Below are positions 12,925 to 29,554 of a stretch of DNA of 64,000 bases, in pieces. Position 1 is the stretch's first letter, and every line of letters starts with the position of its first letter. The notes beneath the pieces are model-generated. The model had not been told where the DNA came from. It saw only the letters and a program-made list of their open reading frames with translations, and did no database searches. A program made the translations under genes and the position numbers. Origin of the DNA: Candidatus Heimdallarchaeota archaeon (lineage in GTDB: Archaea > Asgardarchaeota > Heimdallarchaeia > JABLTI01); assembly GCA_019058275.1 (NCBI GenBank), contig JAHLVW010000074.1:34780-98779 (forward strand), read 5' to 3'.

Positions 12925-15246
12925 TTGAAATCTCGAGTCAAAGTCATTTGTAGAGGTATAGTTCAAGGTATAGGTTTCAGACCCTTTGTTTATAGATTTG
13001 CAAAAAAATTAAACTTAACAGGCTTTGTCAGAAATCAAGGTGATGCAGGTGTTCAAATTATTGCAGAAGGTCCAAAGGAGGACCTTGACAAATTTGTTAA
13101 TTTTCTTAAATATGACAAACCTTACCTCGCTAAGTATGAAGATTTTCAAGTAATGTGGGAATCTTTTCAAAATGAATTCACTAAATTTGAGATTTTATCA
13201 AGCTCTGTGAAAAAAGTGGGTGGAGTTTCATATCTTCCTCCTGATATTTCAATTTGTGTTGATTGTTTAAAAGACATGCAAAAAACTGATAATGATCGGT
13301 TTAATTATGCTTTTACTTCTTGTGCAATTTGTGGTCCAAGATATACAACCATTACAAGCCTACCATATGATAGACCTAATACAACAATGATAGATTTCCC
13401 ATTATGTTATATGTGTAAAAGTGAATATGATAATCCATTAGATCGAAGACATCATGCCCAAACAACATGCTGTGCGAAATGTGGACCAACATTAACTTTA
13501 CACAATAAAAATGGAAGTAAAATCAAAACTAAGGATTTGTATAATGAAATTGTTAAGTTAATTTCAGAAGGAAACATAATTACAATTAAAGGAATCGGAG
13601 GAACACATCTAGCTTGTTCAGCTGTTGATGCAGAGCCAATATTACGGTTAAGGACACGTAAAGGAAAAAGAAAACATAAGCCCTTTGCAGTAATTTCTAA
13701 ATCCATAGATGAAATAAGGAAATTTGCTTCAGTTAATGCTATTGAAGCGCAATTACTAGTAAGTCATCGTAGACCAATTGTTTTGTTGGAAAAGAAGCAA
13801 CCATTTCCTTTATCTGAATGGATTGCTCCTGAATTGTTCAATATAGGAGTAATGTTACCATATTCAGGGATTCACTCATTAATATTGGATATGTTGAATG
13901 ATCCTGCTTTAATTCTTACAAGCGCCAATCCTTCAAATGTTCCAATGTATATCAAAAACAAACAAATATTATCAAATGTAGACGATCTTGCTGACTATAT
14001 TCTTTTACACAATAGAAGAATACACCAACGTGCTGATGACAGTGTTATAAGATTATCAAATGATAATCCTGTATTAATAAGAAGATCTAGAGGTTGGGTT
14101 CCAGAACCTATAAATCTGCCATTTAACCTGAAAGATTATGTTTCACTAGGCGTAGGTCCACTTTTAACCTCAACTGGAGCTATTGCAATGACAAATCGTT
14201 GTTTTCCAACTCAATATATAGGTAATGTTGATACACTAGAAACATTAGATTTTCTCGAATCAGCCATTAATCACTTAGGATCATTATTAGGTGTAGATTC
14301 ATACAAAATTATTGGATACGATTTACACCCAAATTTCTTTTCAACAAAATTGGCTAAAAAATATGCAACAGAAAATAATGCTGATTTATTACAAATACAA
14401 CATCATCATGCACATGCAGCTTCCTTAATGATTGATAATCAATTACCCATAGAAGAGGAGATTGTTGCGATTATTGCTGATGGGGTTGGATATGGAATCG
14501 ATGGTGTAATTTGGGGAGGTGAAATATTTCATACAACCTATAAAGGCTTTAAAAGGATAGGGCACCTTGAAGAACAACCAATGATTGGTGGAGATAGAGC
14601 TACTTATTATCCAATAAGAATGGTTGCTGGAATTCTTTCAAAAATACTATCTGAGGATGAAATTTACAGATTACTAACAAAGAATTATCCTGATAGTCTA
14701 CCGGGCGGGGATAATGAAATACGTGTATTACTCACTCAACTAGAAAAAAACATTAATGTGTCTAGTACAACAAGCACAGGTAGAATTCTCGCTACAGTCA
14801 GCGCATTGCTTAAAGCTTGTTATGAAAGAACTTACGAGGGAGAGCCTGCAATTATATTAGAATCATTAGCATATAATGGGAATCCCAAAGGAGTTTCTTT
14901 TAAAATACCGGAAGCAGATAATGGTATAATAGATACAACATCATTAATTCATCAAGCATTAGAATTCTATAATTCTGGTGTAAGGCCTGCCAATATTGCA
15001 GCTGCAGTACATTCCGAAATAGCAAATCAATTTGCTAATGCTGCCATCAAATATGCAAAATCTAATTCAATTAGAAAAATTGGTTTTACAGGTGGAGTGG
15101 CGTATAATGATATGATCTCGAGACAAATTTTTAAAAAAGTAAAAGATGCAAAACTTGAATTTTTACAACATAAATCATTGCCTTGTGGCGATGGTGGAAT
15201 AAGTAGTGGTCAATCAGTGATTGCAGCTCTAAGTAAAAATGAATAG
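12925..15246 (+). CDS. hypF: [NiFe]-hydrogenase maturation carbamoyltransferase
   Basis: GIVQGIGFRPFVYR acylphosphatase domain, CxxC zinc fingers, KGIGG, QHHHAH, DGVGYG, PCGDGGISSGQ. Confidence 0.96.
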   Translation: MKSRVKVICRGIVQGIGFRPFVYRFAKKLNLTGFVRNQGDAGVQIIAEGPKEDLDKFVNFLKYDKPYLAKYEDFQVMWESFQNEFTKFEILSSSVKKVGGVSYLPPDISICVDCLKDMQKTDNDRFNYAFTSCAICGPRYTTITSLPYDRPNTTMIDFPLCYMCKSEYDNPLDRRHHAQTTCCAKCGPTLTLHNKNGSKIKTKDLYNEIVKLISEGNIITIKGIGGTHLACSAVDAEPILRLRTRKGKRKHKPFAVISKSIDEIRKFASVNAIEAQLLVSHRRPIVLLEKKQPFPLSEWIAPELFNIGVMLPYSGIHSLILDMLNDPALILTSANPSNVPMYIKNKQILSNVDDLADYILLHNRRIHQRADDSVIRLSNDNPVLIRRSRGWVPEPINLPFNLKDYVSLGVGPLLTSTGAIAMTNRCFPTQYIGNVDTLETLDFLESAINHLGSLLGVDSYKIIGYDLHPNFFSTKLAKKYATENNADLLQIQHHHAHAASLMIDNQLPIEEEIVAIIADGVGYGIDGVIWGGEIFHTTYKGFKRIGHLEEQPMIGGDRATYYPIRMVAGILSKILSEDEIYRLLTKNYPDSLPGGDNEIRVLLTQLEKNINVSSTTSTGRILATVSALLKACYERTYEGEPAIILESLAYNGNPKGVSFKIPEADNGIIDTTSLIHQALEFYNSGVRPANIAAAVHSEIANQFANAAIKYAKSNSIRKIGFTGGVAYNDMISRQIFKKVKDAKLEFLQHKSLPCGDGGISSGQSVIAALSKNE

Positions 15247-15281
15247 GAAAGTTCCGTAATACATGAAATACAAATAATACT

Positions 15282-15794
15282 CTAGCTTGATTTTGAAAGA
15301 GCAGTTTGCTTCTTAAGATTTTGAACATTATCAAAAATCATTTTTGTATAAACCTTAATCCATTTTTCTCTTTCTTCAGGTGATTGATTTTCCAGATTAT
15401 TTATAGTAATTAAATCTAGAAAATTCTGTGATAATTCATTAAAATCTGATAGTCTAGGTGAATCTATTATATTTAATACTGCAGCTACCATGAGAGTAAA
15501 AATGGCTTTAATTAAATTTAATCTAGCTTGTTCCAGAGTTCTATAGAATGCTCGTTTTGTTACATTTCTAATTTTACCACGTTCAAGATATCCTAAATCT
15601 GGATTTATCTCATCTGTTATTATGTCAACAACCAACGTTTCCAATTGTATTTTCGTCAAATTTGTCCATACTTTAGATCCCTTAATTGATGAATCATTAT
15701 TTTCATAAAATAATTTAATTACTGGATTGTTTAGTATATTATTGACTTGTTGTTTAATCTGTTTTATATCGCTTTTATTCATTTGATGCACCAA
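15282..15794 (-). CDS. Hypothetical protein with probable HTH
   Basis: LTKIQLETL...ERGKIRNVTKRAFYRTLEQARLN looks like a sigma-region-4/HTH segment. TTG start. Confidence 0.6.
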   Translation of the reverse strand: MVHQMNKSDIKQIKQQVNNILNNPVIKLFYENNDSSIKGSKVWTNLTKIQLETLVVDIITDEINPDLGYLERGKIRNVTKRAFYRTLEQARLNLIKAIFTLMVAAVLNIIDSPRLSDFNELSQNFLDLITINNLENQSPEEREKWIKVYTKMIFDNVQNLKKQTALSKSS

Positions 15795-16894
15795 GTATAC
15801 AATATTATACGACTGTATGTCATCATTATAAAATGTTTCCGATTAGTGTCAAAAAAAGCCAAAGTGTCAGAAATAATTAATTTTTATGACATTATGTTAT
15901 ATATTCTTATATATTTACAACATATACTTTTTGCTGTTTTTTGACCTTTTTTTCACTATTTACCCGTACATCTGTATTATTTGTAATACAAATAATACTG
16001 AACTACTAATTTATAGAAGATTTCTACTGAAAATCGCTAAAAGAAACATAAAACAAGATACTTTACCTGAAGATTCAAAGGTTGACAGTATTTTTATCAA
16101 TTAAACAAAGATTAAATAAAAAATGAGAAAGAATGTTGTGTATCTATAAAAAAGGACAATTTTTCTATGTTACTTTCTATCTTTTCGCTTAAAATAACAT
16201 TTAGATCACTATTTTATTATCTCTATTATCCTTTTTTTGTAAAAAATTGATTATTTCTACTGTAAAATTGTGTTTTATTTAGTATTAAATTGATATAAAA
16301 TAAGTAGAACCTGAATTTGTAATATTTGTATTACAAATAATACTTACATTTCTTTTTTGAATAATTTGCTAATCTTCTTACGAACTACAAATATAACAAG
16401 AACATTATCAGAGTATTTGAGATGTGATCTTTAATGTAATATTCTTATCAAAAATGGCAAAGCAAATTCCATTGGTGGAAAAATATAAGATTTTCTTTCA
16501 TTTATTAATTATTTCTTTTAATACATGTATTAAAAGCAACACAAGTCACATATTTATTACATATAATTCAAGTAATACAAATATTGCACATATTGCTTAT
16601 AATATTCACAAATTTACATATGTTTAATTATCTACAAATGATCTTTTATCTATCTACATTTGTCATCTAATTGTGTTCTATCTCCACTTTGTATTATATG
16701 TAATACATATATTACTTTAAAACATCCCGTATGTACATTTATAATAGTATTATAGATAATTATTTCCTAAAAAAATTTCTTTTCATATAAAGTGAATTTT
16801 TTTCTCTAATTTTAGATCAAAATCATCAAAATTAATATGAGAGAAACAACCTAAAACATGAATTTTGTATTGCATGTAATACATGCAATATCAT

Positions 16895-17224
16895 TCAGAA
16901 ATGATATTTAGATGCAATATCTGGAAATTCAACTTTTATTGTTCTTTTTAAAGCATCTTCAATAAACTTTGATCTATTTAGATATTTTTCATCTGTTAAA
17001 TCATTTAATGCTTCAACGAGGTCCGAACTTACAGTTGCAGAAATAACTGGTCTACTCCTTAAACCAGGAACTTTATCGATTTCTCTCTTAGCTTTTCTTA
17101 CAGTAGGTTTTGGTGGTAATAGCTTTTTTTCTTCCTTTTTCTGTGGTGTAGCTTTAATACCTTTTTCTTCTTTAGAAGTTGTTTTTCTTGTTTCTTCTTT
17201 CCTGTATTTTTGTAATAGACTCAT
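16895..17224 (-). CDS. Ribbon-helix-helix protein with long basic, disordered N-terminal tail (ParG/Omega-like architecture)
   Basis: RHH: PVISATV strand, SDLVEALNDLTDE helix, NRSKFIEDALKRTI helix. About 55-aa Lys/Pro-rich tail. Confidence 0.8.
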   Translation of the reverse strand: MSLLQKYRKEETRKTTSKEEKGIKATPQKKEEKKLLPPKPTVRKAKREIDKVPGLRSRPVISATVSSDLVEALNDLTDEKYLNRSKFIEDALKRTIKVEFPDIASKYHF

Positions 17225-17288
17225 GTTTAATTCCCTTTAATCTTGTAATTAATACATGTAATACATGAAATATAAATATTACTTTCAC

Positions 17289-18242
17289 TTATACTTCAGT
17301 TAAAAATTCTTTATAGTAATTAGATACTAAATTTGCGATTTCAAAATCAATTTTTCCTTTACCTTTTTTTCGGTTGAGCCCGTCAGCAGCAACACTTACA
17401 GTAGCTCTACATAATAATCTTAAATCTCTAGGAATTCCTTGTGAATTTTCAAATAGAATTTTAGCTGCATTTTCATTAAATGGTTCTATTGAAAAATTGT
17501 CAATATCAAAACTAGAAATCTCACCTTTTGCATAAGCAATTCTTCTACCAATAAATTCTCGAGAGTGCTTCCATTCAAATCTTGGTACGTCAATTGGCTC
17601 ACATCTATCAGCGATTTGAGGTAATACTGCAGCTAATGCTTGAAAATATTCTGTTGTGCCAGACATGATTATTGTAGCTATAGGTTCCTCAGCTTCCTCA
17701 GCGTATAGATCAGCTAAATATTGTAATTTACTAAATATCTCATGTTGATTTTCACTTATGTCTTCTGCTAATAAAACAGATCTAACTTTTTCTTTTGTAT
17801 ATTTTTCAATTATGTCTTTACCAACAGAATCCATAATTTCATCTGAATCATCAGTTTTGTTAAATTTAACATTAAATCCTATTGCACAAAGTCTTGCAAA
17901 TTGTCTTGCATGTAATCCCGATCTATCGATATATGCTGTTCTAAATGTATTATTATTTAGATCCTTCAAATCTCGTATGTCTCTTCTAATTAAAATTAAA
18001 TGAGTAGATTTACCTACACCTACAGGTCCTCTTATAAAAATAGCAGGTCTTTCATTTGAAACTACTATATCAACTAAAGACTCAAGAAATTCCGACATTT
18101 CAACTAATAAATCAGGATTTGGTAAAGTAAATCCTAAAAATGGATTTCTTTTAAATCCCATTTCTTTTATCCATGATTCTAGTATTTCTTTTCTTGCTTC
18201 AAAATGTTTTGAAAATGGTGACATTCTGTTGGTTTTAGACAA
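17289..18242 (-). CDS. ExeA/TnsC-like AAA+ ATPase
   Basis: GFKRNPF N-motif, Walker A GPVGVGKST, atypical Walker B VLLAED, Arg finger QIADR, sensor-2 SQGIPRDL. TTG start with GGTGA SD. Confidence 0.8.
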   Translation of the reverse strand: MSKTNRMSPFSKHFEARKEILESWIKEMGFKRNPFLGFTLPNPDLLVEMSEFLESLVDIVVSNERPAIFIRGPVGVGKSTHLILIRRDIRDLKDLNNNTFRTAYIDRSGLHARQFARLCAIGFNVKFNKTDDSDEIMDSVGKDIIEKYTKEKVRSVLLAEDISENQHEIFSKLQYLADLYAEEAEEPIATIIMSGTTEYFQALAAVLPQIADRCEPIDVPRFEWKHSREFIGRRIAYAKGEISSFDIDNFSIEPFNENAAKILFENSQGIPRDLRLLCRATVSVAADGLNRKKGKGKIDFEIANLVSNYYKEFLTEV

Positions 18243-18434
18243 TTAATTCACCTAATTTGTAATACAAGTATTTCGTATATATTTCTGATAATTTAGTTTA
18301 GATGTCTTTTTTCATAAAAAAGTGTCGGTAAAAGTTAGTAAATGATATAATTTTTGTTCCAGTAAAATGTTTAAATAACAACAAATAATAACTAAAACTC
18401 CATATTTTTTGTTATAACAAAATAACGAGTTGAT

Positions 18435-19022
18435 ATGATGTCTAGTGAAGATGATATTTTCTTGAAAACTTTTACTCAGATGATAGAAATTTTGAAGACC
18501 ATGAATACTTCAATTGATTTGATTAGAAAATCTGTAGAAGTTATCCAATTATCTATTGATGGTTTAGGAACTGGTCTTACAAATGTCAATGCACAACTTG
18601 ACAAACTTAACAATAAATTTGATGATTTATCAAACAAATTAGAAAGTACTCCTGTTCATACACCAACTAAAGTAACGGAAACAAAAGCAACAGCTACTCC
18701 AACAAAGAAGAAAGAAACTAAAGCTGTCAGCCCAGGACCTGCAGTTTCATCACCAATGCCACAAAGCAGTAGTGCTCAACATCCGATATTCATAGATTTA
18801 GTTAAGAAGATAAATGAAACTGCTAAATTTAAAGAAGTTGGAGAAGCTCTAATAGAATCTTTAGAGCAGATTGAATCTAGTTTTTCATTCAGCCGAGTGT
18901 TTTACGAAATTCGTAGAATTGCTAATAGTCTAATTCGTAAAGGGGATAATGATTTTCCTCCTAATGATAGATTGGAATTAGTAGAAAAAATACTGGACTG
19001 GGAACAAAGATTAGCTGAATGA
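18435..19022 (+). CDS. Hypothetical protein: N-terminal coiled coil, Thr/Pro linker, helical C-terminal domain
   Basis: 195-aa ORF with heptad pattern and low-complexity linker. Confidence 0.6.
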   Translation: MMSSEDDIFLKTFTQMIEILKTMNTSIDLIRKSVEVIQLSIDGLGTGLTNVNAQLDKLNNKFDDLSNKLESTPVHTPTKVTETKATATPTKKKETKAVSPGPAVSSPMPQSSSAQHPIFIDLVKKINETAKFKEVGEALIESLEQIESSFSFSRVFYEIRRIANSLIRKGDNDFPPNDRLELVEKILDWEQRLAE

Positions 19023-19101: not shown

Positions 19102-19305
19102 ATGACACTAGAAATTCCACTTGCACCATTAGATCATTTACTGCAAAAAACTGGTGCAAAATGTGTAAGCTCATCAGCTGCAGGTGCTTTAAAAGAGATT
19201 CTTGGGAATGTAAGTAATCAAATTGCAACACGAGCATTAGAACTCTCTAAGCATGCTAATAGATCAACAGTAACAGAGGACGACATCAAATTAGCTTACA
19301 GGTAG
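19102..19305 (+). CDS. Archaeal histone (HMf-like) with substituted DNA-contact residues
   Basis: EIPLAP..LL...GA..VS..A..AL.E..; HANRSTVTEDDIKLA. AGGAG SD. Confidence 0.9.
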   Translation: MTLEIPLAPLDHLLQKTGAKCVSSSAAGALKEILGNVSNQIATRALELSKHANRSTVTEDDIKLAYR

Positions 19306-19353
19306 TGGTTAGCAAAGCATTAATAGCATATCTCTGTAATAAAATAGAAATGA

Positions 19354-19431
19354 GCCCCGATAGTGTAGTTCGGTCAATCATCACGGCCTCTCGAGTCGTG
19401 GACTCGGGTTCAAATCCCGGTCGGGGCACCA
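19354..19431 (+). tRNA. tRNA-Glu (anticodon CTC), CCA encoded
   Basis: Acceptor stem GCCCCGA/TCGGGGC, anticodon arm ACGGC-CTCTCGA-GTCGT, T arm TCGGG-TTCAAAT-CCCGG, ends ACCA. Confidence 0.95.
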
Positions 19432-19485
19432 GTTTTTTTCAAAAGGGGTGTTTTTATTCTAAAATTCTTTAATATTGATGAGGAA

Positions 19486-19686
19486 ATGTACATGAAAAAG
19501 AAACGAGTTTCCTTGAGAAGATTAAAGAAGGACCAACGTGCATCACCATTAATAGAAGAAGGTATATTGATTGGCTTAGCATTATTTGCTTTTGTACTTC
19601 TAATGGCAATAGTCTCTGATATTCTAGGTTTTACTCAAGACATATTTCAAGACGTATCAGAGAAATTGAGAGGGTTAAATCCTTAG
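19486..19686 (+). CDS. Flp/type IV pilin-like protein (class III signal peptide)
   Basis: Basic leader ...KKDQRA|SPLIEE with Glu at +5, then a hydrophobic helix. Lies upstream of the tad-like genes. Confidence 0.7.
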   Translation: MYMKKKRVSLRRLKKDQRASPLIEEGILIGLALFAFVLLMAIVSDILGFTQDIFQDVSEKLRGLNP

Positions 19687-19748
19687 GTTGTTTTAAGCAA
19701 ATTTCTGACCTTTAAGAAAATTATTATTCTTTATTATGTAATTATATT

Positions 19749-19820
19749 TGTTGGGCATGATGGGAAGGCATTTGGAAGAGCAACCCTTGCTATGACCTAT
19801 TTGTTAAAACTGACCCAACA
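19749..19820 (+). ncRNA. Box C/D guide sRNA
   Basis: 7-bp terminal stem TGTTGGG/CCCAACA, box C ATGATG, box D CTGA, internal AAGA-GCAA-ccc-TTGC-TAT-GA K-turn. Guide AAGGCATTTGG is complementary to the conserved LSU rRNA sequence CCAAAUGCCU. Confidence 0.75.
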
Positions 19821-19995
19821 TTTCTTTGATTTTTTTCTAATACTTTCGGTAATCTTCCCCACATATGGGTATTGAATTGTAAGATTAAATTAGTATATAA
19901 CAGATTTAAAAGTCGATTATGTAACATTAAACCCATATTTCTTCTTAAGAAGCTAAAAGATATAATTTTGAGGTGATTAAATTGGTGTTCTTAAA

Positions 19996-21054
19996 TTGGA
20001 AAAAGAAAATGGATTATGTAAATACTGCAATGGTGTTTTAACTCAAACAAGAGGCGAACTTGTTTGTACAAACTGTGGGATTGTTAACAATTCAATTTAC
20101 ATTTCAGAAAACAGTAGTAACCAGATTCCTTGGGATCATGAAATGTCACCAGGAAAAAGAGTACATATTGTTGATGGTTTAGGTAGCTATATTGGATATC
20201 ATAACGATGGTTATTTCCATGATGGAAAAGGAACCACTTTATCTTCAAAAAATCAGTATAAATTTAGAAAACTGAAACATAAATATAATCTTCGGATAAA
20301 AATTGGAAATCATGAGACTGATTATAGATCATTAATGAGTCTAAATCGAGTATCAGGCTTTTTGGGAATTTCTGATAGTGTAAAGAAAAGAGCTGCATAC
20401 TTGTACAAAATAGTCACTACAGCTGAAACTAATAATAAAATAGCAAAGATTTCCAATCACATTGTTTTAGTTGCATTATGTTTAATGGTTGCAATAAGGG
20501 AATCCGCATCAAATGCTCCGATAAGACTTAGTGAAATTGTAAGTATTTTCAAGGATTTAGGTCATCGAGTAAGTGGTAAATCAATTGTTAAACTTGCACA
20601 GACACTCCCAAATGATTTAGGGTTTTCACTAAAAATACGTAAAAGTGAAGATTATTTACAGAGAATCATTTCATCAATAATAGAGGTCCCTGAAGTAGCT
20701 GATCGATTAAAACAATTGAGGTTCTCAAAAAAGGAGTATGAAAACAAGTTGTTGCGATTCTCTCGAGAGATTCTTAGTGAAACTAATCTTAGGTCACGTG
20801 GTGGAAGAAATCCATATATTTTTGCAGTTTCAGTCGTTTACTGTGCTGACAGAATTATTGGGAAAGTAAGAAACCATAGACAAATTCTTACACAAAAAAC
20901 ACTTGCTGATATATGTGAAGTTGCAGAATATTCTATTAGAGATCATCATAGGACAGTTTTGAAAGAAAAAATGAACGATAAGCTGAAAGATCTTGTTCCT
21001 CATAAAAATATTGAGCTAGATGAAAATGATTCCAAATTTCCTATGTTTTTTTAG
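19996..21054 (+). CDS. Divergent TFB/TFIIB paralogue
   Basis: CKYC/CTNC Zn ribbon, cyclin folds (KKRAAYLYK; GGRNPYIFAVSVVY), LTQKTLADICEVAEYSIR HTH. Confidence 0.85.
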   Translation: MEKENGLCKYCNGVLTQTRGELVCTNCGIVNNSIYISENSSNQIPWDHEMSPGKRVHIVDGLGSYIGYHNDGYFHDGKGTTLSSKNQYKFRKLKHKYNLRIKIGNHETDYRSLMSLNRVSGFLGISDSVKKRAAYLYKIVTTAETNNKIAKISNHIVLVALCLMVAIRESASNAPIRLSEIVSIFKDLGHRVSGKSIVKLAQTLPNDLGFSLKIRKSEDYLQRIISSIIEVPEVADRLKQLRFSKKEYENKLLRFSREILSETNLRSRGGRNPYIFAVSVVYCADRIIGKVRNHRQILTQKTLADICEVAEYSIRDHHRTVLKEKMNDKLKDLVPHKNIELDENDSKFPMFF

Positions 21055-21085
21055 TTTAATACATAATATCTAAGGAGGAATATCC

Positions 21086-22579
21086 ATGACTCTACAAGAA
21101 AAATATCTAGTTCCTCCTTACTACATTAAAATTTTTAAGGATACGAAAGATAGACAAATATATTCAGCTGAAGTAGCTTTCGATTCATCAAAATATCATA
21201 CATTAACAAATACGATTGAAAAGCAAATTATTAATGAAAAGGGATTTTTAGATATAGAATTGCTAAAATTTCAATCTTTGTTAAATTCTCTAAATGGTTC
21301 TGTTGAAGAAAAACTAAAGGATTTTATATCTGTGAAAAACAAATCTCTTAATTTCATTCGTGACTGGATAATCTATAAGATTATAGGACTAAATCAATTA
21401 ATGCCATTATTAATTGATGATAGAGTGCAAGAAATTTATCTAGATAAACCTAATACACCATTATATTTAGATCATCAAGATTTTGGTAGATGTGTTACAA
21501 AGATTATTTTATCTGAAAGAGAGCTTGAGCAATTTAAAACCCGATTATGTCTCGAGAGGAATGCGGTTATTAATTATCTTAACCCATCTCTCAAAGTGGA
21601 ATTAAAAACTCAGAAGTTCCATGTTCGTGCTGCTATAGACATTCCACCATTAGCAGTTGATGGAATGAGTATGAATGTTCGAAAACTTCGTAAGAAGATC
21701 TGGACTTTACCTGAACTTGTAGCTAAAAATATGTTATCTATAGAATCAGCTGCTTATCTACTTTTTATATTGAGAAGAAGAAATAATATTACAGTAATTG
21801 GCGAACCTGGTTCAGGTAAAACAACTCTTGCAAATGCTATTGACTTCTTAACCCCAACAGAATGGCGAAAAATAACTGTTGAGGATGTTATCGAAAGCAT
21901 CGAACAAACACAATATAATAAATTTCAAACTCGTTATTCAGTTTCAACATTTGAATCTCAAAACAATAGTAATTCAAAAAGCCAAGAAATCATTAAGCTT
22001 CTTCACAGATCACCAACGTGGGTATTTCTTGGAGAAATTCAAACTGCTGAGCACAGTAAAGCTTTATTTGAAGCATTAAGTGCAGGATTGGTTGGTATAC
22101 AAACATGTCATGGACGTTCAGCTGAATTAATGATTTTAAGATGGTTAAATCAACATGGTATTCCATTATCAAGCATTCTATCTTTAGATGTTTTAATTGA
22201 GAATTCTTACACATTTAGCAATTGGAGAATTACAAGAAATGTATTTAGAATTATTGAAGTATCGAAAACCCCTCTAATTAATCATCAAATTATAGATTCG
22301 TTTAATGATTTGCAACTCGTTGAAATCTTTAGATTTAATATTAAGAAATCATGTTTAGAAAAAAAAGTTGATTTATTCGAAACTCCAATGCTTAAGTTGA
22401 TAAGACAAAAAGAAAAAATTAGTAAGATTGCTTTTGAGAATGAGATGAACTTACTGATGAAGAAATTAAATTATCTTATACTCAACAAGATGTTTGAACC
22501 AATAAATGTCTTAAACTATCTAAATCTGCAAAGTAATTTAGGTATCTCCAGTAAAACAAAAATTACAAAAACAAGTTGA
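21086..22579 (+). CDS. TadA/CpaF/VirB11-family secretion ATPase
   Basis: PLLIDDRVQEI, GEPGSGKTT, TVED Asp box, FLGEIQ, TCHG His box. Confidence 0.88.
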   Translation: MTLQEKYLVPPYYIKIFKDTKDRQIYSAEVAFDSSKYHTLTNTIEKQIINEKGFLDIELLKFQSLLNSLNGSVEEKLKDFISVKNKSLNFIRDWIIYKIIGLNQLMPLLIDDRVQEIYLDKPNTPLYLDHQDFGRCVTKIILSERELEQFKTRLCLERNAVINYLNPSLKVELKTQKFHVRAAIDIPPLAVDGMSMNVRKLRKKIWTLPELVAKNMLSIESAAYLLFILRRRNNITVIGEPGSGKTTLANAIDFLTPTEWRKITVEDVIESIEQTQYNKFQTRYSVSTFESQNNSNSKSQEIIKLLHRSPTWVFLGEIQTAEHSKALFEALSAGLVGIQTCHGRSAELMILRWLNQHGIPLSSILSLDVLIENSYTFSNWRITRNVFRIIEVSKTPLINHQIIDSFNDLQLVEIFRFNIKKSCLEKKVDLFETPMLKLIRQKEKISKIAFENEMNLLMKKLNYLILNKMFEPINVLNYLNLQSNLGISSKTKITKTS

Positions 22580-22655
22580 ATTTGCTTATAAAAATATAGT
22601 TGTTTAAATTTCTAAATTCTTTATTACTCTATATAATCATTCTTTTAGGTAAACT

Positions 22656-23483
22656 GTGAGAAAAATGATAGAGAAAATCCTTACTAAATTGGCTAGGTCA
22701 CAATTTTGTAGAAGGATAAATTTTGATAAACTTCTTACTGATATTCCTAATAGCTTTTTTATTGATAATTATAATGTAAAAAGAAAAGAGTTTAATGGTG
22801 CTATATTAATTTCATCTTGTTTATTTGCAATGATAATTGCAAGTTTAGTGACTATATATGATGTTATTTTTGGTTTCTTGGTTTTAATCATAATTTGCTT
22901 GACATCAATTCTTTTCATGGTAAGAAGAATAAGAAAATTATATCTAAAAGAAATACTTGAAGTCGAACAATATTCTGACCTAATTTGTAGAGAGATAATG
23001 CTTATACTTAGTACTACAAACTCATTACCTATGGTCATTGAATTTCTCTCTAAGGGATCATATCCAATAATTTCACCTATGATGGATCAACTGATCAAAA
23101 AAATGAATATGGGATCATCACCAGTAAATTTATTAGAAGATTTTGCAAAAAATCAACCCTCTGAAACTATAAAGGAATTTATCTTTGAAATAGTAATTCC
23201 TTATGCAAAGGGACAACTTAAACAAGGTAACACAATAAATTATGAAGCTCAATGGAGGATCAGAAATAATTTTGATTCTTATGTTAACCAGTTAGAGGGT
23301 AAAATTAGCATTTTCCTAGCAATTACGACAATTATACCAGTAACAATTTCAATGTTGTTGGTAATGCTTGGTTATATAAATATAAATCTAATAATTTTTC
23401 TCCCATTAGTATTCTTTGTTTTTGACTTAATCGCGATAGAAATTTTTAATAGTGGAAAAGTTGAATTGCTTGGAGGGCTTTAA
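22656..23483 (+). CDS. TadB/TadC (GspF-like) pilus platform membrane protein
   Basis: TM pair, cytoplasmic GspF-like domain, TM pair. Follows the ATPase. Confidence 0.7.
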   Translation: MRKMIEKILTKLARSQFCRRINFDKLLTDIPNSFFIDNYNVKRKEFNGAILISSCLFAMIIASLVTIYDVIFGFLVLIIICLTSILFMVRRIRKLYLKEILEVEQYSDLICREIMLILSTTNSLPMVIEFLSKGSYPIISPMMDQLIKKMNMGSSPVNLLEDFAKNQPSETIKEFIFEIVIPYAKGQLKQGNTINYEAQWRIRNNFDSYVNQLEGKISIFLAITTIIPVTISMLLVMLGYININLIIFLPLVFFVFDLIAIEIFNSGKVELLGGL

Positions 23484-23486
23484 AAT

Positions 23487-24131
23487 ATGATTTTATCTAA
23501 TGATGATGTGATATTATTATTGAAAAGTTTAGGTAATAATTTATTATTGGGTAGAAATGTAGAAAATAGCATCTATATTTCATTAAAAAATTTACAAAAC
23601 AAGGATTTCCATAAAGATAAAATTATAAAATTAATGAATTTAGGAACTGGGTACAAGGAAATTTTCAGAGAGCTTGCACTACTTACGAAAGATGATTCCA
23701 TTTCGCGAGTATGGACACTATTATCTAAAACCTCAATAATCAGCTCTCATGAAACTGGTGAAAAAATCATAGAAATAGCTGAAAATCTGGAAATTAATAA
23801 AAAGCTTACTGAAAAAAGAGATACTTTGATTAAATCTCAAAGATATAAAATTTTATTTCTAGGATCAGCGACATCAATTTTCCTTGGAATAATTGCAGGA
23901 TTAGCACCTTTATTTGCTACATTCATTTCCATATTTAGAAATATGGAGATTTCTCAAACAGCTCTAAATATTGTACCTTTTTCTCTATACATCATCTCAG
24001 CATTTTCTATTTATTTTCTTTCAGATATTGGATATGGAAAGTTTAATTACAAAACATTTCTTTTTTCAACAATTGTTTATGTTTTATCATATTTTATTGC
24101 TAAAGGTATCTTGATTTTACTATTAAAATAA
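23487..24131 (+). CDS. TadC-like pilus platform membrane protein
   Basis: GspF-like domain plus three C-terminal TMs. Co-oriented, 3-bp gap. Confidence 0.65.
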   Translation: MILSNDDVILLLKSLGNNLLLGRNVENSIYISLKNLQNKDFHKDKIIKLMNLGTGYKEIFRELALLTKDDSISRVWTLLSKTSIISSHETGEKIIEIAENLEINKKLTEKRDTLIKSQRYKILFLGSATSIFLGIIAGLAPLFATFISIFRNMEISQTALNIVPFSLYIISAFSIYFLSDIGYGKFNYKTFLFSTIVYVLSYFIAKGILILLLK

Positions 24132-28354: not shown

Positions 28355-29554
28355 TTAATCGATATGTTTTTCAAGTTGCTCTCTAATTGCTTTTTCAATT
28401 TTTTCAGCAGAAACATCTGGTAATCCAATTAACGTTGTTTGCCCTCTTTGCCCCTTACTACTAGGTTTAGTTGTAATTACATCACAATTTTGTAAATATT
28501 GAATATATTCCCAAACTTGCGTATGACTTCTGGTCGGTAAATTGAATTCTTCACATAATCCTTTGTATATTTCCTCTGCCTCTCCTATAGTTGCATATGC
28601 TTTTTGGGTTGTTCTTAGTTTAATAGCTATTGCCAATAGAACTAATTTCTGTTGTGATGTTAAATCCTTTACAATTTCTTGTCTAATTACTGGATGTATT
28701 GATGCATTAGCATAACGCACATGTTCTGGTAGTACTTTTAAGGACTGTCTGTGATCAGCGTGTATACCAGCACGTTCTAATAATTCAATTGCGTATCTTG
28801 CATCACCATTTTTTGATACAATATCAGCTATTAAATCAATTGCTTCCTGTGAAACAGTATCCTCGAAGAATGCCTCCTTAACTCTATCTGCTACAATATC
28901 TCTAAGCTGATCTTCAGTATATGGTTCTAATAAGATTGTATTTTGTCTTAATGTACTTAATGTGCTCTCATCAAGCATAGTTCTAAATGCGATATCCCTT
29001 ACAATTGTAATCATTGATACTCTTTCTTTCATATCAATTTCATCATCTGTTAATCTCGTAAGATCATACAGAAGGTCTGGACCATCTTTTCTAATGACAA
29101 AATCAATTTCATCCAAAGTAACAATTAGGAATAATCTTTTTCGGTTTAAGATCTCAGTTAACATATTCAGAATTTCTTCTGGGGAAAATCCTCTTACAGG
29201 TATATGAGGATTAAATTTTCGAACAATTTCAAGAAGGGTCAGAAATGCAGATCTAGCCCTACGGCAATTTACATGAACGTATTCCAAGTTTAGGTTTTTT
29301 TGTGTTGAATAAACTTTTATCATTTCACCAAATTTCAAAGCCATTGCTGTTTTTCCAGTACCTATTGCTCCTATTATCGATACCCTTTGTGAATATTCGC
29401 CAGGTTGTTCTATAACAGGCTTAAAGTATTGAATTAGCATTTTCTGCTCTTCTTCTCTATGTAAGAGCTTCTTTGGAATATATTTAAGATCCAATACTCT
29501 AGAATTTTTAATTAACGATGGTTTTCTGAGTTCTTTTTCCAATAATTCATCCAT
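28355..29554 (-). CDS. cdc6: Orc1/Cdc6 replication initiator
   Basis: YIPKKLLHRE, GAIGTGKT, VHVNC, LDEID, GDARYAIELL, C-terminal winged helix (GQRGQTT). Confidence 0.95.
   Translation of the reverse strand: MDELLEKELRKPSLIKNSRVLDLKYIPKKLLHREEEQKMLIQYFKPVIEQPGEYSQRVSIIGAIGTGKTAMALKFGEMIKVYSTQKNLNLEYVHVNCRRARSAFLTLLEIVRKFNPHIPVRGFSPEEILNMLTEILNRKRLFLIVTLDEIDFVIRKDGPDLLYDLTRLTDDEIDMKERVSMITIVRDIAFRTMLDESTLSTLRQNTILLEPYTEDQLRDIVADRVKEAFFEDTVSQEAIDLIADIVSKNGDARYAIELLERAGIHADHRQSLKVLPEHVRYANASIHPVIRQEIVKDLTSQQKLVLLAIAIKLRTTQKAYATIGEAEEIYKGLCEEFNLPTRSHTQVWEYIQYLQNCDVITTKPSSKGQRGQTTLIGLPDVSAEKIEKAIREQLEKHID

Follow-up and report, generated by a model that had tools for sequence, protein, structure and literature searches.

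What do an ATPase gene, a small DNA-binding protein and a field of phased palindromes do together beside an archaeal replication origin? The question is raised by a stretch of 64,000 nucleotides from Candidatus Heimdallarchaeota archaeon (assembly GCA_019058275.1, contig JAHLVW010000074.1, positions 34,780 to 98,779), referred to below as the window. The host belongs to JABLTI01, which we take to be Gerdarchaeales. In the window a gene for an AAA+ ATPase is followed by a gene for a tailed ribbon-helix-helix (RHH) protein, and both are accompanied by clusters of the heptamer GTAWTAC repeated at a period of 9 bp. Together these form a real, ancient and origin-linked three-part module of Asgard archaea, for which there is no described counterpart. 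A function as a chromosomal, origin-proximal, centromere-like module for segregation or organisation of the chromosome is the reading that we favour, with moderate confidence.

The box clusters are confined to one locus

The order of the genes on the minus strand is ATPase, RHH, a spacer of 1.1 kb and a helix-turn-helix (HTH)-like gene, which converges on hypF. The features are given below in that direction; boxes, spacer and predicted origin are listed without strand.

18259–18283, triple box at the ATPase promoter; position kept in every lineage read
17289–18242, minus strand, initiator-clade AAA+ ATPase gene, 317 aa; AAA_22/TniB/ExeA-type profile matches
17249–17282, four-unit array between the ATPase and RHH genes
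16895–17224, minus strand, tailed RHH gene, 109 aa; RHH_1 above the curated cut-off at residues 61–94
17195–17224, minus strand, conserved tail peptide S-x-L-x-K-Y-R in RHH codons 1–10; candidate ATPase-docking motif
15795–16894, AT-rich gene-free spacer of 1.1 kb with six clusters inside
16867–16891, triple box directly past the RHH stop
16691–16715, triple box, near-perfect 25-bp palindrome
16554–16596, five-unit array
16509–16533, degenerate triple box
16319–16343, triple box
15974–15998, triple box
15282–15794, minus strand, HTH-like gene, 170 aa, convergent with hypF; its own, different palindrome lies upstream
15256–15280, triple box flanked by the stops of hypF and the HTH-like gene, which converge here
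14716–14731, tenth site, double box within the hypF coding sequence
574–756, two facing boxes resembling origin recognition boxes (ORBs), predicted oriC

All nine 9-bp-phased clusters described in an earlier, sequence-only reading of this DNA were recovered, and all nine are intergenic. The claim that the sites as a whole are intergenic was too wide; a tenth site lies inside hypF, and about half of the sites in Thorarchaeia fall within coding sequences (CDS, see below). The window contains 18 exact heptamers, against 6.5±2.5 expected. Over the whole 4.1-Mb assembly, period-9 triples with at most three mismatches occurred at this locus only (8 of 8), as did period-9 double boxes with at most one mismatch (11 of 11), and the confinement expected from the earlier reading was thus found. 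The control periods of 7, 8, 10, 11 and 12 gave 0–3 scattered matches. The phased clusters are real and far beyond chance. A dispersed regulon had been named as one outcome that would speak against a special role of the repeats; the single heptamer was not enriched at promoters (23 matches in 2661 upstream regions, rank 18 among 24 comparable palindromes).

The gene-free character of the spacer was also borne out, as 15795–16894 holds no open reading frame (ORF) of more than 72 aa and has no Rfam match; scans for promoters and terminators in the spacer gave nothing above chance. The HTH-like gene, which is conserved, had gone unnamed in the earlier inventory of the interval. An A/T palindrome followed by GTAC lies at ∼16730–16766, about 170 bp past the RHH stop, in all six aligned spacers of the host genus; it differs from a heptamer array and is perhaps the site of another protein.

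The ATPase has an initiator-clade fold

The structure model of the ATPase is confident (mean predicted local distance difference test score, pLDDT, of 88.5) and corresponds to an AAA+ module. The closest fold matches were Orc1/Cdc6 proteins (Z-scores of 19.6, 19.3, 18.4 and 17.4), led by 7jgr_G (Z 19.6, root-mean-square deviation 3.3, 253 residues aligned) and 1w5s_A (Z 19.3); MuB and TnsC followed with Z-scores of 17.4 and 16.3. Another fold comparison returned matches from these groups as well. Sequence identity in these matches was 10–16%. Two helices are inserted between strand 2 and Walker B, as in initiator-clade proteins, and the modelled chain ends after the lid, without a winged helix. 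The Cdc6 profile TIGR02928 scored 14.5 bits against a cut-off of 181, and Cdc6_C was not matched in the ATPase. By sequence the protein is nearer to ExeA-like proteins than to Cdc6; the nearest named families are ExeA and the PEP-CTERM-system ATPases (TIGR03015, E 3e-8, 33 bits against a cut-off of 324.5), and a sequence search against the PDB gave no match. The initiator-clade fold and the ExeA-like sequence agree with the earlier designation of an ExeA/TnsC-like AAA+ protein; in structure the protein is at least as close to Orc1/Cdc6 (Z 17–20) as to MuB/TnsC (Z 16–17).

With motif roles assigned from general AAA+ knowledge, the ATPase has a classic Walker A (K78), a variant Walker B (E160-D161), a putative arginine finger (R213) and a sensor II (R272). 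Walker A, R213 and R272 are invariant in the alignment of host and Thorarchaeia sequences, as expected for an ATP-bound oligomer. Walker B reads ED in the host and Thorarchaeia, DD in Jord/Freyarchaeia and DE in Odinarchaeia. Other types of nucleoside triphosphatase (NTPase) were considered and rejected: the AAA_22/TniB-type matches, the classic rather than deviant Walker A, the AAA+ lid and the fold matches rule out a ParA/MinD type, and the confident AAA+ model rules out an actin or tubulin fold.

The RHH protein carries a conserved tail peptide

The RHH protein is predicted to consist of a conserved N-terminal helix (residues 3–12), a disordered linker, the RHH domain (61–99) and a short conserved C-terminal helix. 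The tail had been described as long and basic. It is indeed net basic in the host (20 K/R versus 8 D/E in residues 1–58); conservation is limited to the first ∼8 residues, however, with M1, L4, K6, Y7 and R8 invariant in 23 sequences, and the linker is variable, modelled with low confidence and not consistently basic in Thorarchaeia. A fold search with the low-confidence monomer model of the RHH protein yielded nothing meaningful. The match to aCcr1_fam was weak (E 0.035, 14 bits against a cut-off of 60), and the GTAWTAC core matches the published aCcr1-box.

The strict tail peptide occurs once in the six frames of the host genome. In loci labelled Bathyarchaeota, an RHH-like gene without a tail precedes the gene for an ATPase of 38% identity, and directly behind the latter lies a gene for a KaiC-like protein, whose N-terminus carries the tail peptide three times. 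The peptide stays beside the ATPase as its carrier changes, which suggests that it is an ATPase-docking motif. The Bathyarchaeota-labelled locus (L065, L083 and L084) follows a tRNA gene and also holds genes for membrane proteins and glycosyltransferases; it looks like a repurposed copy of the module.

Conservation in the host genus and in Thorarchaeia

The ATPase was found at 80–95% identity in 8 of 10 congeners of the host (Heimdallarchaeia, JABLTI01). All congener loci read keep the ATPase, the RHH gene, the spacer, the HTH-like gene and hypF, with clusters at matching places. Between the clusters the spacer has diverged (mean column identity 60%), whereas the clusters and their approximate spacing persist, so that the boxes and not the whole spacer are conserved. 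JABLTI01 is an order of Heimdallarchaeia (PMC13617573).

Thorarchaeia have orthologues of the ATPase with 42–45% identity, in 78 of the 89 genomes of three families plus genome G310, and almost always as one match. The gene is directly followed by an RHH gene, and the heptamer and its 9-bp period are those of the host. All 42 triple matches in five genomes of the host genus and Thorarchaeia lie at the locus, no further than 10 kb from the ATPase. A count over 20 Thorarchaeia loci gave 197 clusters. Almost all of them fall in the interval from the ATPase promoter to about +10 kb, the point at which ORBs appear; reversed sequence gave none and other periods gave 0–1.

By a crude ORF call, 96 of these 197 clusters fall within CDS, namely in an acyl-CoA synthetase-like gene, hypF and others. 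The positions of the in-gene sites recur in genomes from 38% to 54% GC. At 80 in-CDS sites the mean number of mismatches was 2.8 with the real codons and 6.3 after synonymous resampling (median p 0.005), in a comparison that is biased by the choice of sites on their match and by the relatedness of the genomes. This codon bias indicates that the DNA itself is selected at these sites, regardless of promoters. Operator-like behaviour is not seen in the sites that lie far inside genes or between convergent stops. The intergenic region past the HTH-like gene of Thorarchaeia also contains conserved blocks unrelated to the heptamer (L018 10150–10620, L020 10100–10460 and L022 10030–10450), which are a possible RNA or protein site.

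The field is recoded in other Asgard lineages

The ATPase gene is followed by a small RHH-like gene in 10 of 11 genomes of Jord/Freyarchaeia, in 4 of 4 of Odinarchaeia and in 3 of 3 of family f26 (probably Baldrarchaeia), with weak or absent Pfam support for these partners. Jord/Freyarchaeia are without heptamer arrays and have GATATC at a 13-bp period instead. The positions of the GATATC arrays match the layout in the host: at the promoter, between the genes, past the RHH stop and at the HTH/hypF junction. Such triples were found at the locus only in five Jord/Freyarchaeia genomes (20 of 20; for the closed genome G116, 9 of 9), and the controls gave 0. Odinarchaeia and f26 have a related heptamer at a 10-bp period. 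For Odinarchaeia the genome contrast was weaker; matches with at most one mismatch were all at the locus, and with two mismatches the background equalled the control, because the pattern is too AT-rich for a clean genome-wide test.

Motif and period thus change together with the RHH family as the site positions persist, which is the best indirect evidence that the RHH protein reads the field. From this we infer that it is the binder of the boxes. The RHH gene adjoins the ATPase gene in 32 of 32 loci, and arrays are present in the host genus, Thorarchaeia, Jord/Freyarchaeia and Odinarchaeia; synteny of the three parts across Asgard genomes, proposed earlier as a check, was therefore observed. 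In a tree of the ATPase, the host, Thorarchaeia and Bathyarchaeota sequences group with support and Jord/Freyarchaeia are their sister, whereas the connection of the Odinarchaeia branch to them is not firm. The ATPase gene may have been transferred between the host lineage and Thorarchaeia.

Further Asgard matches at E 1e-11 to 1e-28 were rejected as orthologues; apart from one bacterial-type ExeA, they are members of a sister family in which the ATPase is fused to a C-terminal HTH and has no RHH partner. The sister family (L070–L073, L075–L077 and L081), present in several Asgard groups, combines an ExeA-like AAA+ domain with the C-terminal HTH, a Cdc6-like build, and its gene adjoins a small Rab-like GTPase gene in one family. 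A distant pair of an ATPase and a tailed RHH gene was seen on a metagenome contig (L066, 8001–9248), 7.5 kb from ORBs and cdc6 and flanked by genes for topoisomerase VI, a ubiquitin-like operon and gyrase. L066 and L068 gave no arrays with the three motifs tried.

Linkage to the replication origin and neighbouring genes

The module had been placed about 15 kb from a predicted oriC, and this agrees with the ORB-like boxes at 574 and 737, which are 14.5–17.7 kb from the module. From the ATPase promoter the box field extends in their direction. Next to the ORB-like boxes of the window is a small gene which elsewhere among Asgard genomes has cdc6 and ORBs as its neighbours. In each lineage for which enough of the region was read, ORBs were present, and their distance from the ATPase was 2–3 kb in G116, 5 kb in Odinarchaeia, 7 kb in f26 and G310, 9–11 kb in Thorarchaeia and 15–17 kb in the host. 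In the closed genome G116 the arrays extend over 11.4 kb, with three ORBs interspersed among them; they take in the cdc6 promoter region, and one site is located on the far side of cdc6. The GC skew along the 99-kb contig of the host was uninformative. Canonical ORBs and a complete Cdc6, which has its winged helix, are present. SMC is present as well, at a distance of at least 0.3 Mb in closed or large-contig genomes, and thus without linkage to the module. Further single ORB-like boxes were seen in genome G000 (C89:44769, C42:38258 and C33:14244), one of them a perfect match, and may mark a second origin; the cdc6 gene of the window (28355–29554) has no ORB next to it.

In 31 of the 32 loci read, no more than about 4 kb separate the HTH-like gene from the ATPase; the gene may be a third component or a conserved neighbour in the oriC region. 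It was not found in five genomes without the module, in a weak test with a single-sequence query. A separate palindrome (GTATAC, six bases, GTATCC-like) is located upstream of this gene in Thorarchaeia, Odinarchaeia and f26 (L054, L057–L059 and L111–L130), with a degenerate form in the host genus (window 15795–15812), and is probably the HTH-like protein's own operator, conserved across classes.

On the other side of the module, a coiled-coil protein of 195 aa (18435–19022) is encoded divergently from the ATPase; it is kept in all loci of the host genus and was not seen at the corresponding place in other classes. The region upstream of the module (19102–24131) is a pilus-like cluster in the host genus, composed of a histone-like gene, tRNA-Glu, a pilin-like ORF and genes for a TFIIB-like zinc-ribbon protein, a secretion-type ATPase and two membrane proteins. 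Pilus-like genes near the module were also seen in one Thorarchaeia locus and are not conserved across lineages.

Comparison with known systems

Type Ib and type II partition systems (ParF-ParG-parH, delta-omega-parS and ParM-ParR-parC) are plasmid-borne and have compact, non-coding centromeres. They resemble the Asgard module in their NTPase, tailed RHH adaptor and phased short repeats for adjacent dimers, found also at the operon promoter; they differ in the fold of the NTPase, in being on plasmids and in the compactness and non-coding nature of the centromere. In bacterial ParABS the two proteins are a CTPase clamp of the HTH type (ParB) and a Walker-box ATPase (ParA). That system shares with the Asgard field several origin-proximal sites, some of them in genes and all limited to one chromosome region, whereas neither ParA nor ParB is part of the Asgard module. 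Orc1/Cdc6, TnsC and MuB share with the Asgard ATPase the fold (Z 16–20), the helical insert after strand 2 and the positions of arginine finger and sensor II; unlike them, the Asgard protein has no winged helix, transposase or TniQ partner, and its Walker B is atypical in the clade. ExeA/GspA and the PEP-CTERM-system ATPases (TIGR03015) are the nearest named sequence family, at a score far below the cut-off, and the Asgard ATPase differs from them in being paired with an RHH protein and DNA arrays and in having no secretion-system genes around it that are shared across lineages.

The closest parallel on a chromosome is found in Sulfolobales. SegB binds a triple repeat beside the operon and contacts SegA via its N-terminus (PMC12139799); segS comprises one full site 166 kb from oriC2 and scattered partial sites (PMC12139799, PMC11381335). 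SegAB-segS and the Asgard module have in common an origin-linked chromosomal operon of ATPase then RHH, a triple-repeat site just upstream, iterated sites beside the operon that are rare elsewhere, and an adjacent RHH protein with a flexible N-terminal region, which in the Asgard case would contact the ATPase. They differ in that SegA is of the ParA type and the Asgard ATPase an initiator-clade AAA+ protein, and in that the Asgard field has 5–17 clusters, 2–17 kb from ORBs and partly in genes. The aCcr1 protein, also of Sulfolobales, is a 58-aa stand-alone RHH repressor with ∼300 promoter sites and a 9-bp palindromic box (PMC9976878). It too is an RHH protein, and the core of its box is nearly that of the Asgard heptamer; the Asgard protein, in contrast, is tailed and encoded beside an ATPase, and the Asgard boxes form phased arrays at one locus without promoter enrichment.

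Function of the module

In its fuller form the proposal is an ancient Asgard segregation system that would represent a new class. A tailed RHH protein would recruit an ORC/TnsC-like AAA+ ATPase to a centromere-like field of 4–11 kb beside oriC, replacing ParABS/SegAB, and the code of the field would have been rewritten per lineage (periods of 9, 10 and 13 bp); we consider this an even bet. Each RHH dimer would bind one palindromic box, much as aCcr1 binds its near-identical 9-bp box (PMC9976878), and the fixed 9-bp phasing would let three to five dimers bind side by side. About ten to fifteen such clusters are laid out over 3.5 kb in the host and up to ∼10–11 kb in Thorarchaeia and Freyarchaeia, and once bound would mark a single domain beside oriC; those at the promoter and between the genes could also provide autorepression. 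Judging from its conservation and the reuse of the peptide, the N-terminal helix on the flexible tail displayed by each RHH protein would dock on the ATPase. The ATPase, which has no site-specific domain of its own, would form ATP-bound oligomers on DNA without regard to sequence, in the manner of TnsC, MuB and ORC subunits, and the tails would concentrate or switch it. The atypical Walker B of the clade makes a fast motor less likely than a slow switch or scaffold. Once an origin has been replicated, a condensed complex would form at each copy and separate or position the sister origins, as ParABS does in bacteria and SegAB in Sulfolobales.

The distribution of other segregation proteins was counted as support for a segregation role. 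The closed genomes G116 and G303 had no ParA/MinD match at E≤1e-10, and ParB gave no match over the cut-off in any of five carrier genomes, whereas five genomes without the module had 2–6 ParA/MinD-family matches each; the sample is small and most matches are MinD-like. The ParA-family matches of the host are one Mrp-like and one MinD-like protein, without an evident ParB or SegB neighbour.

Several observations weigh against segregation as the function. The position near oriC and the confinement in the genome fit origin control or tethering equally well, and the best structural matches of the modelled ATPase are replication initiators. Walker B reads ED and not DE in the host and Thorarchaeia, so that hydrolysis may be slow in this clade and a force-generating motor is questionable. 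The Bathyarchaeota-labelled loci, which have another partner and gave no arrays with the three motifs tried, show that a DNA field is not the only cargo open to the ATPase family, and that the family is not bound to DNA segregation. No copy of the module was detected in f20 (probably Lokiarchaeia), which is the largest Asgard family, or in the other families of Heimdallarchaeia, where the weaker matches fall into the sister family; at the level of the phylum the module is thus dispensable. To these points the bias of the codon comparison has to be added. Of the earlier proposal of an undescribed segregation or organisation class, the confinement, the conserved pair with its arrays, the oriC linkage, the AAA+ fold and the absence of a regulon or transposase have held up; segregation is the more probable output, with origin control and tethering as its rivals.

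Origin control is the alternative that survives best, and we regard it as unlikely. The ATPase and the RHH protein would then be a split Orc1/Cdc6-like factor in which the RHH replaces the missing winged helix and directs the factor to DNA, and the field would concentrate the ATPase to help, time or block initiation, as a co-initiator, a helicase-loading aid or a brake on re-initiation. The three top fold matches (Z 19.6, 19.3 and 18.4), the interleaving of arrays with the three ORBs of G116, at the cdc6 promoter region and beyond cdc6, and the Cdc6-like build of the sister family, with its ATPase fused to a C-terminal HTH, are in line with such a role. In the host, however, a gap of ∼14 kb separates the end of the field from the ORBs, a distance too great for acting directly where the DNA is unwound; canonical ORBs and a complete Cdc6, winged helix included, already exist; and the sequence of the ATPase is nearer to ExeA-like proteins than to Cdc6.

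Bacteria use RacA, Noc, SlmA and MipZ as origin-tethering or division-site factors, and an RHH-coated domain might similarly recruit the ATPase as a signal, linking the origin to the membrane or pole or keeping the division machinery away. The in-gene sites fit a role in marking DNA, the nearest named families (ExeA and PEP-CTERM-system ATPases) are tied to envelope machines, and the Bathyarchaeota homologue has genes for a KaiC-like protein, membrane proteins and glycosyltransferases around it. Against this, the lineages have no membrane or division gene in common beside the module, neither the ATPase nor the RHH protein has an evident membrane anchor, and the fold group is that of DNA-binding AAA+ proteins. 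A tether or division-site signal is thus, in our estimate, rather improbable.

Ordinary transcription control, by an aCcr1-like RHH repressor of its own operon and neighbours with an unrelated ATPase, would account for the near-identity of the box to the aCcr1-box, the weak aCcr1_fam match and the clusters at the operon promoter. It would not account for the lack of promoter enrichment (23 matches in 2661 upstream regions) or for sites between convergent stops, in a gene-free spacer and deep in unrelated genes, at one locus only; as the sole function it is largely refuted, and we give it very little weight. A Tn7/Mu-like or other mobile remnant with iterated end-binding sites, at which the fold similarity to TnsC and MuB, the tRNA-Glu gene 1.1 kb from the host ATPase, the patchy distribution and the closeness of the host ATPase to that of Thorarchaeia might hint, can practically be dismissed, since no transposase, TniQ, integrase or element ends were recognised among the neighbours read (host-genus, Thorarchaeia, Jord/Freyarchaeia and Odinarchaeia loci). 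The module is moreover intact and single-copy, it keeps its position close to hypF, the HTH-like gene and oriC throughout several classes, and its sites are written into housekeeping genes; the Tn7-like remnant feared earlier is not supported.

Significance

The searchable literature, which left out most subscription papers, contained no description of the module, nor of a single regional field that is written into housekeeping genes and recoded between lineages. For chromosome segregation in Asgard archaea, a 2024 review points to ParA and ParB homologues that 'may' be used (PMC7617429). The module offers a defined DNA field together with a probable reader and a partner ATPase, each of a size that suits work in vitro, and a version is available from a small, closed genome of Odinarchaeia. 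If the module controls origins, it would add a further layer to archaeal replication control; if it segregates DNA, it would represent a new class of NTPase for partition, with an ORC-fold ATPase linked to a centromere-like locus in close relatives of eukaryotes.

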